Source of the DNA: Escherichia coli
GTDB lineage: Bacteria; Pseudomonadota; Gammaproteobacteria; Enterobacterales; Enterobacteriaceae
Assembly (NCBI RefSeq): GCF_003334305.1
Contig: NZ_QOWS01000015.1
Length of the DNA stretch: 64,000 nucleotides
Reading direction: 5' to 3' (one strand)
In this document: in pieces, positions 36,576 through 61,079 of the stretch
Layout: each line of letters begins with the position of its first letter
How positions within the stretch are numbered: position 1 is the first letter of the stretch
The notes under the pieces: model-generated
What the model saw: only the letters and a program-made list of their open reading frames with translations
The model's database searches: none
What the model was told of the DNA's origin: nothing
Made by a program: the position numbers and the translations under genes

Positions 36576-38537
36576 ATGCGGTTGTTTATTGCCGAAAAAC
36601 CGAGTCTGGCGCGCGCCATTGCTGATGTCCTGCCCAAACCGCACCGTAAAGGCGATGGCTTTATCGAGTGCGGTAATGGTCAGGTGGTGACCTGGTGTAT
36701 CGGTCACCTGCTTGAGCAGGCGCAGCCAGACGCCTACGACAGCCGCTATGCGCGCTGGAATCTTGCGGATTTGCCGATTGTCCCGGAAAAGTGGCAATTA
36801 CAGCCCCGACCCTCCGTGACCAAACAACTTAACGTCATCAAACGGTTCCTGCATGAAGCCAGCGAAATCGTTCACGCCGGGGACCCGGATCGCGAAGGGC
36901 AACTGCTGGTGGATGAAGTGCTGGACTATCTACAACTGGCACCGGAAAAGCGCCAGCAGGTGCAGCGTTGCTTGATAAACGACCTGAACCCGCAGGCGGT
37001 TGAGCGGGCGATCGACCGTCTTCGTTCCAACAGTGAGTTTGTACCGCTGTGCGTTTCTGCGCTGGCGCGAGCGCGTGCCGACTGGCTGTACGGCATCAAT
37101 ATGACCCGTGCGTATACCATTCTCGGTCGCAATGCCGGTTATCAGGGCGTACTTTCCGTGGGACGCGTGCAGACACCCGTGCTCGGGCTGGTGGTGCGCC
37201 GCGATGAAGAGATTGAAAACTTCGTGGCGAAAGACTTCTTTGAAGTCAAAGCGCATATCGTGACACCTGCCGATGAGCGGTTTACCGCTATCTGGCAACC
37301 GAGCGAAGCGTGTGAACCGTACCAGGATGAAGAAGGGCGCTTGTTACATCGTCCACTGGCGGAGCATGTGGTTAACCGCATTAGTGGTCAACCGGCTATT
37401 GTCACCAGCTATAACGATAAACGGGAATCAGAATCCGCGCCGCTGCCGTTTTCGCTTTCGGCGTTGCAGATTGAAGCGGCAAAACGCTTCGGTCTGAGCG
37501 CGCAGAACGTGCTTGATATCTGCCAGAAGCTGTACGAAACGCACAAGCTAATCACTTATCCGCGTTCCGATTGTCGCTATTTGCCAGAAGAACATTTTGC
37601 CGGACGCCACGCGGTGATGAATGCCATCAGCGTTCATGCACCGGATCTGTTGCCGCAGTCAGTGGTAGATCCAGATATACGCAACCGCTGTTGGGATGAC
37701 AAAAAGGTCGATGCGCACCACGCCATCATTCCGACCGCAAGGAGTTCTGCGATCAACCTGACGGAGAACGAAGCGAAGGTCTATAACCTGATTGCCCGTC
37801 AGTATCTGATGCAGTTCTGCCCGGATGCGGTGTTCCGCAAGTGTGTTATCGAACTGGACATTGCCAAAGGCAAATTTGTCGCTAAAGCGCGTTTTCTTGC
37901 TGAAGCAGGTTGGCGCGCGCTGTTAGGCAGCAAAGAGCGCGATGAAGAAAACGACGGCACGCCATTGCCTGTGGTGGCGAAAGGCGATGAGTTGCTGTGT
38001 GAAAAAGGTGAAGTGGTAGAGCGGCAAACCCAGCCGCCGCGCCATTTTACCGATGCAACACTGCTTTCGGCGATGACCGGGATTGCGCGCTTTGTGCAGG
38101 ACAAAGATCTGAAAAAGATCCTTCGTGCGACCGATGGTCTGGGGACAGAAGCAACGCGTGCCGGGATTATTGAACTGTTGTTCAAGCGTGGTTTCCTCAC
38201 CAAAAAAGGGCGCTATATCCACTCCACCGACGCCGGAAAAGCGTTATTCCATTCGCTGCCAGAAATGGCTACGCGACCGGACATGACCGCGCACTGGGAA
38301 TCGGTGCTGACGCAAATCAGCGAAAAGCAGTGTCGCTATCAGGACTTTATGCAGCCGCTGGTGGGGACGCTATATCAGCTTATTGATCAAGCCAAACGTA
38401 CTCCGGTGCGGCAGTTTCGCGGCATTGTGGCTCCGGGCAGTGGTGGCAGTGCTGATAAGAAAAAGGCTGCACCGCGTAAACGTAGTGCGAAAAAAAGTCC
38501 GCCAGCAGATGAAGCCGGAAGCGGGGCGATAGCGTAA
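36576..38537 (+). CDS. topB: DNA topoisomerase III
   Basis: ORF trimmed to [10 protein letters not shown] (653 aa); Toprim and type IA topoisomerase domains. Confidence 0.95.
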
Positions 38538-38664
38538 GCGAGCGAATCTTTCGTGCTATTCGAGTCATATTCTGAAATATCCAGCGGATCAAGAAAATTC
38601 GTTGGATATTTTTTTTGCATGGATAAAATTATCGCCTCTAAAGTATGTAATAACAGGGAATGTG

Positions 38665-39706
38665 ATGAAAAAAGTTTTATTACAAAACCATCCTGGGAGC
38701 GAGAAGTATTCTTTTAATGGCTGGGAAATATTTAATAGTAATTTTGAACGGATGATTAAAGAAAATAAGGCCATGCTGCTTTGTAAGTGGGGGGGTGTAT
38801 TTAACATGTGTTGTCGCTGTAATGTTTGTATTCGCAGCGATAACATCCAACGGTTTGAATGAAAGAGGCCTGATTACTGCGGGATGCTCTTTTCTTTATC
38901 TATTAATTATGATGGGGCTTATTGTTCGGGCCGGTTTTAAAGCAAAAAAAGAACAACTGCATTATTATCAGGCTAAAGGTATTGAGCCGCTCAGTATCGA
39001 GAAGTTACAGGCGCTACAATTGATCGCACCTTATCGATTCTATCATAAGCAATGGTCTGAAACGCTGGAGTTCTGGCCGCGAAAGCCTGAACCTGGCAAA
39101 GATACCTTCCAATATCATGTGCTTCCTTTTGACTCGATCGATATCATAAGTAAAAGACGCGAGTCTTTAGAGGATCAATGGGGTATCGAAGATAGCGAAA
39201 GTTATTGTGCCTTAATGGAGCATTTTCTTTCTGGCGACCATGGAGCCAATACCTTTAAAGCAAACATGGAGAAAGCCCCAGAGCAGGTTATCGCCTTGTT
39301 GAATAAATTTGCTGTTTTTCCCTCAGACTATATCTCTGATTGCGCTAATAATCGCTCCGGTAAATCCTCGGCGAAGCTAATATGGGCGGCGGAATTATCA
39401 TGGATGATCTCGATATCAAGCACAGCTTTTCAAAACGGGACAATTGAAGAAGAACTGGCCTGGCATTATATAATGCTTGCTTCTCGAAAGGCGCACGAGT
39501 TGTTCGAAAGCGAAGAAGATTATCAAAAAAATAGTCTAATGGGATTTCTTTACAGGCATATCTGCTGCTATCGCAGAAAGTTAACGGATGCTGAACTTGA
39601 AGCGTGTTATCGTTACGACAAGCAGTTTTGGGAGCACTACAGTAAGAAATGCCGTTGGCCCATAAGAAATGTTCCCTGGGGAGCATCATCCGTTAAATAC
39701 TCATAA
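38665..39706 (+). pseudogene. ynjI: ynjI (DUF1266 inner-membrane protein) disrupted by +1 frameshift in a G7 tract
   Basis: Two ORFs (38602..38862 and 38795..39706) in adjacent frames; removing one G at 38789-38795 fuses MKKV...KWG to VYLTCVV..., giving 346 aa as recalled for K-12 YnjI. Confidence 0.65.
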
Positions 39707-39720
39707 ACGCCTGAAATTTT

Positions 39721-39814
39721 GCCGGGGGCGCTGCGCTTGCCCGGCCTACATTAGAGCGTAACTGCAATGAATTGTGCCCATTTGTAGGCCTGATAAGCGT
39801 AGCGCCATCAGGCA
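39721..39814. repeat. REP/BIME element (two inverted REP units) between ynjI and gdhA
   Basis: GCCGGGGGCGCTGCGCTTGCCCGGCCTACA and TGTAGGCCTGATAAGCGTAGCGCCATCAGGCA match the E. coli REP consensus. Confidence 0.75.
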
Positions 39815-39822
39815 TTTACAAC

Positions 39823-41166
39823 TTAAATCACACCCTGCGCCAGCATCGCATCGGCAACCTTCACAAAACCGGCAATGTTCGCGCCCTGCACGTAGTTGGT
39901 TTGCTCACCTTCACCACCATGCTCAACACAGGCATGGTGGATATCCAGCATGATGTGATGCAAACGTGCGTCAACTTTCTCGGCTTTCCAGCCCAGGCGC
40001 GCAGCGTTTTGTGCCATTTCCAGGCCCGACGTTGCTACACCGCCAGCATTAGCCGCTTTACCCGGTGCAAACAGTACGCCTGCCTGCTGGAACAGTTCAG
40101 TCGCTTCGATGGTGGTCGGCATATTTGCCCCTTCAGCGACGGCTTTAACGCCATTGGCGATAAGCTGATGCGCGGCGTCAACATCCAGTTCGTTCTGGGT
40201 GGCGCAAGGCAGGGCGATATCAACCGGTACAGACCACGGCTGTTGGCCTTCGAGATAGACCAGACCAAATTCTTTGGCGTAATCTGCCACTCGACCATCG
40301 CGGCTGGCTTTGATTTCGATAAGACGTGCCAGTTTCTCTTTCGTGAATCCGCTTTCATCAACTACAGTGCCGCTGGAGTCTGACGCAGTGATCACACGAG
40401 CACCAAATTCCATCGCTTTTTCGATAGCGTACTGGGCGACGTTGCCGGAGCCAGAAACGGAAACGCGCATCCCTTCAAAACCCATACCGTGGCGTTTTAA
40501 CATTGCTTCTGTGAAATAAACCAGACCGTAGCCGGTAGCTTCCGGGCGAATAAGACTACCGCCAAATGAAAGGCCCTTACCGGTGAAGACGCAGGCGGTA
40601 TTGTTGGAGAGCTTTTTCATCATCCCCGCCATAAAGCCGACTTCACGACCACCAACGCCGATATCACCTGCCGGAACGTCGGTATCCGCGCCCAGATGAC
40701 GATAAAGCTCGGTCATCAGCGCCTGGCAGAAACGCATCACTTCGCCTTCGCTTTTACCTTTCGGATCAAAATCGCTACCGCCTTTACCACCGCCCATCGG
40801 CAGGGTAGTCAGGGCATTTTTGAAGGTTTGTTCGAAGCCGAGGAATTTGAGAATGGAGAGGTTAACTGACGGATGGAAGCGCATACCGCCTTTGTACGGG
40901 CCGATGGCAGAGCTGAACTGCACACGCCATGCACGGTTGACCTGTACCTGATTGCGATCATCAACCCATACCACGCGAAACTGGATCACGCGCTCCGGTT
41001 CAACCAGACGCTCCAGTAATGACATCTGGCGATATTTTGGATTTTGTTCAAGAAAAGGCCAGAGTGTGGTCATTACTTCACGAACGGCTTGCGCGAACTC
41101 GGTTTGATTCGGGTCGCGCTTTTGGACATGGTTGAGGAATGACTCCAGAGAATATGTCTGATCCAT
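39823..41166 (-). CDS. gdhA: NADP-specific glutamate dehydrogenase
   Basis: 447 aa ORF. Confidence 0.97.
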   Translation of the reverse strand: MDQTYSLESFLNHVQKRDPNQTEFAQAVREVMTTLWPFLEQNPKYRQMSLLERLVEPERVIQFRVVWVDDRNQVQVNRAWRVQFSSAIGPYKGGMRFHPSVNLSILKFLGFEQTFKNALTTLPMGGGKGGSDFDPKGKSEGEVMRFCQALMTELYRHLGADTDVPAGDIGVGGREVGFMAGMMKKLSNNTACVFTGKGLSFGGSLIRPEATGYGLVYFTEAMLKRHGMGFEGMRVSVSGSGNVAQYAIEKAMEFGARVITASDSSGTVVDESGFTKEKLARLIEIKASRDGRVADYAKEFGLVYLEGQQPWSVPVDIALPCATQNELDVDAAHQLIANGVKAVAEGANMPTTIEATELFQQAGVLFAPGKAANAGGVATSGLEMAQNAARLGWKAEKVDARLHHIMLDIHHACVEHGGEGEQTNYVQGANIAGFVKVADAMLAQGVI

Positions 41167-60037: not shown

Positions 60038-60053
60038 CTGGTTATCTATCCAG
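60038..60053. promoter_or_regulatory. Putative LexA (SOS) box CTGGTTATCTATCCAG upstream of cho
   Basis: CTG-N10-CAG 16-mer 15 bp upstream of the cho start; cho is a known SOS gene. Confidence 0.55.
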
Positions 60054-60104
60054 TGTAACAGCCGGGAAGCGATTAAAAAAGAGGCGGGTCGATGACAAAG
60101 GTTA

Positions 60105-60210
60105 CACCGTCTGACGTGCTACGCCTGTCAGGCCTATTCGACTCCTGCAATGTATTGAATTTGCATAGTTTTGTAGGTCGAATAAGGCGTTCACGCCGCA
60201 TCCGGCGTGA
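60105..60210. repeat. REP/BIME-like repeats in cho-nadE spacer
   Basis: GTAGGTCGAATAAGGCGTTCACGCCGCATCCGGCG matches REP consensus in reverse; a second degenerate unit lies upstream. Confidence 0.6.
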
Positions 60211-60251
60211 ACAAATTACTCTTTTTCGCACAATCCAATATGTGCAAATTA

Positions 60252-61079
60252 TTACTTTTTCCAGAAATCATCGAAAACGGTAATTGGCGGACGGCGTTTA
60301 TGTTCGGTTTTCAGATACCAGTTCTCTATTGTTCTGGCGACCTGTTCAGGTACGTTTTTCCCTTCCAGATAGTCGTCGATATTGTCATAGGTCACGCCGA
60401 GTGCCACTTCATCTGGCAGAGAAGGGCGATCATCTTCCAGATCGGCCGTTGGCGCTTTCTTATAAAGGTGTTCCGGGCAACCTAATGCCGCCAGTAACTG
60501 TTTACCCTGACGTTTGTTGAGACGATACAGCGGATTAATGTCCGTACCGCCGTCACCATATTTAGTGAAGAATCCGGTAATGGCTTCTGCTGCATGATCG
60601 GTGCCCACCACGACACCGCTGGTCATACCCGCAATGCTATATTGTGCTTTCATCCGCTCACGCGCTTTTTCATTGCCACGGACAAAATCGCTCAGTTCAA
60701 TGCCTGCTTCCCGCAATGCCTGCTCGCTAGCCAATACCGCGCCCTTGATATTAACGGTTAATACGCGATCCGGTTGAATAAAGGCAATGGCATCCTGGCA
60801 ATCTTGTTCGTCGGCCTGAACACCATAGGGCAGGCGTACGGCAATAAATTGCAGTGATTCGTTGCCAGTTTCCTGGCGCAGCTCATTAATCGCCATCTGG
60901 CACAGCTTTCCGGCAAGCGTGGAGTCCTGACCGCCGCTGATCCCGAGCACCAGTGATTTAATGAACGGATAAGTTTGCAGGTAGCTTTTCAGAAAATCGA
61001 CACTACGACGAATTTCCTCTTCAGCATTAATCTGCGGTTTTGCGCCCAGCGCCTTTATTATTTGTTGTTGCAATGTCAT
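60252..61079 (-). CDS. nadE: NH3-dependent NAD+ synthetase
   Basis: 275 aa; P-loop SGGQDS. Confidence 0.96.

Follow-up and report, generated by a model that had tools for sequence, protein, structure and literature searches.

The closest described relatives of the two elements considered here are the REPs of Escherichia coli, of which there are approximately 600 copies (PMC3333891), and the BIMEs that they form. BIME-1, also known as RIP and associated with the work of Gilson, Bachellier, Boccard and Oppenheim, is a single-copy element in which a long, conserved L linker, often with an IHF site, connects z1 and y, and BIME-2 consists of y and z2 in tandem with short linkers (PMC3333891). Beyond these two classes there are atypical BIMEs, often present in multiple copies, in which an L-type linker is combined with REP types in 'wrong' positions, and the REPINs of Bertels and Rainey, a concept that comes from Pseudomonas and involves inverted REPs able to form a long mutual hairpin. 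REPs are bound and cleaved by TnpA-REP (RAYT), a REP-associated tyrosine transposase that acts on single-stranded DNA with a GTAG head and an imperfect hairpin, GTAG being needed for both binding and cleavage (PMC3333891). REPs also serve as targets of IS621, an element of the IS110 family with a bridge-RNA recombinase, whose natural target is ATCAGGCCTAC with a CT core (PMC11208160).

Here we compare with these systems two elements found in a 64-kb window, by which we mean the whole stretch of E. coli DNA that was analysed. Site 1 lies between ynjI and gdhA and site 2 between nadE and cho, both of them intergenic relative to the annotated genes. We conclude with high confidence that both loci are non-coding, non-autonomous copies of the enterobacterial REP/BIME family, with site 2 representing a decaying BIME-1 and site 1 an atypical BIME, that they are putative 3' barriers for the mRNAs of neighbouring genes, and that one of them is a landing pad for IS621. 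As two among the roughly 600 REPs of E. coli, they have little significance beyond their correct annotation, apart from some specific points concerning gdhA and strain-to-strain variation that are discussed below.

Genomic context and family membership

The window is part of an E. coli chromosome: many complete E. coli chromosomes match the 1 kb surrounding site 1 with 100% identity, and the window is collinear with SE11 over pncA-nadE and with MG1655 over selD-chbA, its orientation being reversed with respect to the latter. In MG1655, sites 1 and 2 fall in the intervals 1843715-1843830 and 1823286-1823514, respectively. The RefSeq annotation of MG1655 lists no repeat features, and the REPs, being too short and too few for such an approach, went unreported in a generic repeat search of the window. 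The units were therefore judged by their own features and by comparison with REP consensus sequences (three E. coli sequences, y and Z) taken from the methods of PMC11208160; the coordinates of all features are collected in Table 1.

All four REP units are imperfect palindromes of 20-40 nt that fold as hairpins. Relative to shuffled sequences, two of these folds are strong (39784-39813 and 60173-60206) and two are weak (39721-39749 and 60109-60137), and the two strong units are also the only ones that are individually significant by blastn-short, a search which revealed no further REPs in the window besides the units of sites 1 and 2. Three of the four units carry GTAG 5' of the hairpin foot, and the fourth carries ATAG (60134-60137). 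The original prediction had described the REP units at both sites as classic, a description that suits the two strong units; the other two are degenerate and recognisable only in context, with an ungapped identity of 22/29 to the short-Z consensus for 39721-39749 and of 22/26 to short Z for 60109-60137.

Additional evidence for membership comes from the linkers of the two sites, which share the pattern TGCAATNNATTG...TTTGTAGG, with two matches in the window where zero would be expected by chance. When one genome per species was scanned for this pattern, many copies were found in E. coli. E. albertii had at least 25 and Pseudocitrobacter faecalis at least 16, and the copies in these two species show an A-z1-L-y-B architecture, while unrelated genomes yielded isolated chance matches only. 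Genuine family copies consist, in this order, of AGACTGATGACAAACGCAAAAT, a short Z, about 8 nt, TGCAATATATTGAATTTGCACGATTTT, a y unit and TGAACAAAGCGCACT. From 68 independent copies, found in E. albertii, Pseudocitrobacter and other E. coli loci, we built a profile HMM. Given that every L-linked Z among these copies is of the 29-nt short type, and that BIME-1 is defined as z1, L and y, we infer that short Z is z1. Covariation in the family alignment was uninformative, as the copies are too similar to each other.

The HMM matched site 2 with an E-value of 2.1e-32 (106.5 bits, model positions 4-133 of 139, zero indels) and site 1 on both strands, with E-values of 1e-15 (minus) and 3e-11 (plus). 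Furthermore, each of the two elements of about 100 nt matches 40 or more places per genome throughout all 5426 complete E. coli genomes. Similarity to genome-wide REP families was thus found both by consensus comparison and by profile search, in agreement with the original prediction, which had placed REP/BIME elements at both sites and had named the flanking genes correctly. As far as their sequence goes, sites 1 and 2 are ordinary copies of an already described family. The TnpA-REP gene lies outside the window, and no orthologues of either site were present among the loci fetched from other species. We also came across a 262-nt contig of Desulfosporosinus sp. OT and a contig of an uncultured Bacteroides MAG which each contain a canonical enterobacterial BIME-1, most likely as a result of Enterobacteriaceae contamination of these assemblies.

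Table 1. Features of the two BIMEs, of the neighbouring genes and of the IS621 targets in the window
Feature	Position	Strand	Description
One-mismatch IS621 target ATCTGGCCTAC	30953-30963	+	REP head motif, in a non-REP hairpin
ynjI	38665-39706, stop 39704-39706	+	Convergent with gdhA
Site 1 left REP	39721-39749	-	y/z1 hybrid; reads GCCGGGGGCGCTGCGCTTGCCCGGCCTAC
Site 1 linker	39750-39783	+	L-type with 6-nt deletion; pattern match and HMM gap
Site 1 right REP	39784-39813	+	Short-Z (z1), near perfect; reads GTAGGCCTGATAAGCGTAGCGCCATCAGGC
IS621 target ATCAGGCCTAC, CT core	39784-39794	-	Exact match, window scan
gdhA	stop 39823-39825	-	Convergent with ynjI
cho	start ~60022	-	Flanks site 2
Site 2 left flank, 'A'-type of BIME-1	60087-60108	+	GGTCGATGACAAAGGTTACACC versus family GACTGATGACAAACGCAAAATT; HMM alignment
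Site 2 left REP	60109-60137	-	Degenerate short-Z (z1); reads GTCTGACGTGCTACGCCTGTCAGGCCTAT
Site 2 L linker	60138-60172	+	35 nt; small palindrome TGCAA-N10-TTGCA; pattern match
IHF-type core CAATGTATTGAAT	60148-60160	+	Within site 2 L linker
Site 2 right REP	60173-60206	+	y type; reads GTAGGTCGAATAAGGCGTTCACGCCGCATCCGGC; GTAG at 60173-60176
Site 2 right flank, 'B'-type	60207-60216	+	GTGAACAAAT; HMM alignment
nadE	stop 60252-60254	-	Site 2 between nadE stop and cho start

Site 2 as a worn BIME-1

The predicted sequence was present at both sites, but site 2 proved to be slightly wider than anticipated: with its conserved flanks it extends over 60087-60216, compared to 60105-60210 in the original prediction, and runs from the A flank through z1, the L linker and y to the B flank. 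It shares with BIME-1 the single-copy, head-to-head arrangement of inverted z1 and y, the long conserved L linker with its IHF-type core and the outer flanks, it aligns with the 68 family copies from end to end, and its linker equals the family consensus at every conserved linker position.

On the other hand, both REP units of this otherwise canonical element show signs of degeneration. The z1 unit has a head that reads ATAG instead of GTAG (CTAT on the plus strand, 60134-60137) and a weak stem, with a fold of -7.7 kcal/mol and a z-score of -1.1. The y unit is identical to the y consensus at 31 of 34 positions (blastn-short E=8e-8), but its lower stem is weakened, with GGTCGAAT replacing GGCCGGAT. 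Its minimum-free-energy fold (-15.1 kcal/mol, z -3.3) is not the canonical one but an alternative, perfect 10-bp hairpin between the y loop and the B flank (60189-60212). In MG1655, the y head (aligned to 60173) reads ATAG as well, meaning that the second GTAG has been lost and both heads are mutated in K-12.

Site 2 is found at a coverage of at least 80% in all 5426 of the 5426 complete E. coli genomes. Its presence everywhere, together with its mutated heads, is consistent with a fixed, decaying copy, given that GTAG is required for binding and cleavage by TnpA-REP, and site 2 is probably no longer a substrate of this enzyme. Taken together, these features lead us to classify site 2 as a canonical but worn single-copy BIME-1 ('RIP').

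The hairpin of site 2 lies 64 nt upstream of the cho start codon. Closer to that gene, 15 nt upstream of the start codon, is CTGGTTATCTATCCAG (CTG-N10-CAG, 60038-60053), which we take to resemble the LexA box expected for cho, an SOS-inducible gene. The end of the site 2 BIME-1 is located 34 nt upstream of this LexA-like box.

Site 1 as an atypical BIME

The plan of site 1, namely a REP ending in CTAC, a linker and a REP beginning with GTAG, is common to site 2. The right REP matches the short-Z consensus GCCTGATGCGCTACGCTTATCAGGCCTAC at 29/29 positions plus a 1-nt insertion, with a blastn-short E-value of 7e-8, GTAG at 39784-39787 and an RNA fold of -14.9 kcal/mol (z -4.4). The left REP combines the length of a short Z with a y-like GCCGG...CCGGC foot. 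Its GTAG, which reads on the minus strand, appears as CTAC on the plus strand (39746-39749). In the opposite orientation, the unit is placed by the BIME-1 HMM at the y position, with 5 nt deleted. Its RNA fold reaches -15.7 kcal/mol, but with a z-score of only -0.75 because of its GC content.

Between the two units, the linker reads TGCAATGAATTG and TGCCCATTT with a 6-nt gap in between, compared to TGCAATATATTGAATTTGCACGATTTT in the family. It lacks the 3' arm of the small L palindrome as well as the 3' half of the IHF-type core: CAATGAATTG has been retained and the AATTTG that should follow it is gone. This is relevant to the IHF sites which the original prediction had envisaged. The textbook IHF consensus is WATCAANNNNTTR. 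The IHF-type core of site 2, intact at the sequence level, has one mismatch to this consensus, and such a match is not by itself statistically meaningful. Due to the loss of 6 nt, the linker of site 1 probably does not bind IHF, leaving an IHF site plausible at site 2 only.

Site 1 matches the HMM on both strands because it is chimeric, with a plus-oriented linker, a near-perfect z1 in the y slot and a y/z1 hybrid in the z1 slot. It consequently departs from the BIME-1 pattern of inverted z1 and y in a single copy, and is best classified as an atypical BIME rather than a BIME-1. Like other atypical BIMEs it pairs an L-type linker with REP types in unexpected positions; it differs from those elements, which often occur in several copies, by being a single pair and by the 6-nt deletion in its L linker. 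In addition, mutual pairing of the two REPs of site 1 can give a hairpin of about 45 bp (approximately -50 kcal/mol, z about -4) on either strand. This likens them to REPINs, although site 1 shows no sign of recent mobility, being identical in the window, SE11 and MG1655.

Proposed functions and alternative explanations

From the behaviour of the family we infer three possible roles for these elements: protection of mRNA, attenuation of gdhA translation and binding of IHF. A role in mRNA stabilisation, which the original prediction had suggested for both sites, is plausible. The hairpins of site 1 would act as 3' exonuclease barriers for the gdhA and ynjI mRNAs, each of which would meet its proximal REP first: a distance of 9 nt separates the foot of 39784-39813 from the gdhA stop codon, and the foot of 39721-39749 follows the ynjI stop codon after 14 nt. 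Site 2 would protect the nadE mRNA in the same manner. Site 2 likely retains two activities, one through the IHF-type site of its L linker and one through a stable hairpin located in the 3' untranslated region of nadE, where the foot of 60173-60206 lies 45 nt after the nadE stop codon.

The distance to the gdhA stop codon could have consequences for translation as well. According to the summary given in PMC12306157, REPs situated less than 16 nt from a stop codon lower translation. At 9 nt, the gdhA-proximal REP falls within this range of up to 15 nt and may thus reduce translation by stalling the terminating ribosome, so that gdhA lends itself to testing whether REPs control translation. The literature search yielded nothing relevant on gdhA in combination with REPs, and the supplements of PMC12306157 and PMC3333891 contained nothing on gdhA, ynjI, nadE or cho. 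As for ynjI, the gene is frameshifted in this strain by one extra G in a G-run (around 38785-38793) compared to MG1655, with the shift taking effect after about 42 codons, so any translation-coupled effect on ynjI is moot. The annotation of SE11 likewise lists the same gene as 'frameshifted', and the G-run might be phase-variable.

Several alternative explanations should be weighed against this reading. One is that the REP pairs terminate transcription of the flanking genes in both directions and independently of any factor. PMC3333891 mentions that termination at REPs has been reported in some contexts, and no strong structures other than the REP hairpins of site 1 are present between the convergent stop codons of ynjI and gdhA, where the long mutual hairpin is available on either strand. 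However, none of the REP hairpins is followed by a U-tract, and scans of both spacers for terminator-like and promoter-like sites came back empty. Neither site, then, has the combination of a GC-rich hairpin and a U-tract that marks an intrinsic terminator, and we regard this explanation as unlikely.

Another possibility is that the linker of site 2, and perhaps that of site 1, encodes a trans-acting small RNA of the ES036/CssrF type instead of being a passive repeat. The Rfam model ES036 (CssrF, RF02751) matches 60130-60172 on the minus strand with 42.9 bits, above its gathering score of 37.6, and CssrF has been seen by northern blot in Shigella, between dacB and yhbZ (PMC3071730). Nevertheless, the 43-nt model corresponds to the L linker plus a REP head and recurs in every BIME-1, which means that a match identifies the repeat and not a specific gene. 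Moreover, no promoter-like site was found at site 2, and site 1 scores only 12.8 bits against the same model, below the threshold. A second Rfam family of this sort, naRNA4 (CssrE, RF02564), is a y+z2 tandem array (REP325), and the y REP of site 2 matches one half of it with 26.9 bits, compared to a threshold of 59.5; site 1 matches neither ES036 nor naRNA4. Other weak Rfam matches (miRNA families, tmRNA_permuted) were, like that of naRNA4, all below threshold. We consequently view a dedicated small-RNA gene at these sites as very unlikely.

A third explanation, and one that the original prediction had included by listing gyrase sites, is that both elements are DNA gyrase binding sites or topological insulators. 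Some BIMEs are indeed bound and cleaved by gyrase, a role as supercoil barriers has been proposed for them (PMC6379681; PMC6907758), and site 1 is located between convergent genes, where positive supercoils would build up. Yet the genome-wide enrichment of gyrase cleavage has been reported for BIME-2, that is for tandem arrays of y and z2, in a study which does not address BIME-1 (PMC6379681), and neither of our sites is a BIME-2. They have no long-Z REP, with no long-Z match beyond the shared head, no short S linker and no tandem copies, consisting instead of single pairs with an L-type linker. The predicted gyrase sites are therefore not borne out, and we find this explanation highly improbable. 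Finally, the idea that the similarity merely reflects chance GC-rich palindromes, to which the two units that fold no better than shuffles and match weakly on their own might lend some appeal, can be dismissed almost outright, as it is refuted by the copy number in the 5426 genomes, by a linker pattern with a chance expectation of zero and by the HMM E-values of 2e-32 and 1e-15.

Site 1 as a target of IS621

Reading both loci as REP/BIME copies leaves the question of their involvement in recombination, the original prediction having portrayed both as potential hot spots. For site 1, there is direct evidence at the level of DNA. The only perfect copy of the IS621 target in the window coincides with the z1 head of site 1. 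Strain JNU has the gene of an IS621 transposase between ynjI and gdhA, with the junctions ...TTTGTAG/ATACTG... and ...AATACAAG/GCCTGATAAG..., where the slash marks the boundary. IS621 thus separates GTAG from GCC in this strain, and the AG (CT) core flanks it on either side. A 120-nt junction probe detected the same IS621 junction in 42 of the 5426 genomes, and these insertions could be descended from a single event. The DNA sequences thus show that the IS621 bridge-RNA recombinase uses this z1 head as a landing pad, and in this respect the predicted hot spot holds for site 1. The work of Choi from 2003 is said to have placed natural IS621 target sites in REPs.

The role of site 1 as an IS621 target has already been published: its 50-nt sequence is seq723 in Supplementary Data 2 of PMC11208160 (Durrant 2024), and it is no different from the other natural IS621 targets in REPs that this study reported, being one of them. 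Among the other three REP heads of the window, manual comparison revealed 2-3 mismatches to ATCAGGCCTAC, and none came up with one mismatch or fewer in the window scan.

Haplotypes downstream of gdhA

Site 1 is complete in 3474 of the 5426 genomes (64%). At least 1496 other genomes lack both ynjI and the BIME, and have instead topB, a spacer of 76 nt and gdhA, with a single y-like REP in between; about 450 genomes show neither of the two gdhA haplotypes at a coverage of 80%. Site 1 and ynjI thus travel together as a presence/absence haplotype. The homology of the window with the topB-REP-gdhA haplotype breaks off precisely at the gdhA stop codon and is regained only within topB, so that the two downstream haplotypes have no detectable homology beyond that stop codon. 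The replaceable segment covers approximately 38369-39822 and comprises the final ~170 nt of topB together with ynjI and the BIME, its counterpart being positions 3763-4001 of a topB-REP-gdhA locus, L003.

In both haplotypes, the foot of a REP is found 9 nt from the gdhA stop codon (39814-39822 in the window, 3993-4001 in L003), despite differences in the spacers and in the REP types, the gdhA-proximal unit being z1 in the ynjI-positive haplotype and y in the topB-REP-gdhA haplotype. Unless this is a coincidence, one could speculate that selection keeps a REP at exactly this distance in order to tune the synthesis of glutamate dehydrogenase, which would proceed through ribosome stalling at termination or through 3'-end protection. 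If so, the gdhA-proximal REP would be a domesticated regulator as opposed to a passive repeat. We consider such selection unlikely.

The yeaC-pncA junction and its hairpin

The original prediction had also raised the possibility of a relation between the two BIMEs and a REP-like repeat at the junction of a ydj deletion. Compared to SE11, the window lacks ydjL-ydjE (the ydjLKJIHGFE cluster, which is also present in MG1655), and yeaC is joined to pncA via 157 nt (30846-31002), a junction that is found in 1090 of the 5426 complete genomes. The 3' flank of pncA contains a hairpin (30955-30989) with the arms CTGGCCTACA and TGTAGGCCAG, a fold of -18.9 kcal/mol and a z-score of -4.95, and it is not located at the deletion breakpoint.

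This hairpin does not qualify as a REP: nhmmer returned E-values of 0.16 and 0.21, with only TTATCTGGCCTAC matching, and its GTAG/CTAC lies inside the stem, unlike in the architecture of REPs. A counterpart is present in the ydjE-pncA spacer of the ydj-positive strain SE11, with the 66 nt around the hairpin being 74% identical between the ydj haplotypes. As it occurs in ydj-positive strains too, the hairpin predates the deletion and was not created by it. The ~70 nt adjoining pncA were likewise observed to be only 74% identical to the ydj-positive haplotype. The yeaC-pncA junction looks like an old alternative haplotype and not like a recent deletion.

What part of the suspected relation stands is a shared head motif. 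The hairpin carries ATCTGGCCTAC, which differs from the IS621 target at position 4, where a mismatch is tolerated (PMC11208160), and Supplementary Data 2 of the same study includes this natural target as seq25. The ydj hairpin and the two BIMEs are therefore linked by a common head motif and a common insertion sequence, and not by common descent. Together, the perfect landing site at 39784-39794 and the one-mismatch site at 30953-30963 bear on structural variation from strain to strain.

The IS621 junction predicted for the pncA hairpin was present in one genome, that of strain 2011C-3911. Partial matches to this junction in many other genomes were traced to an unrelated IS621 copy near dppA. 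In E. coli 503025, between dppA and tRNA-Pro, the left flank of IS621 resembles the flank of the pncA hairpin over approximately 29 nt.
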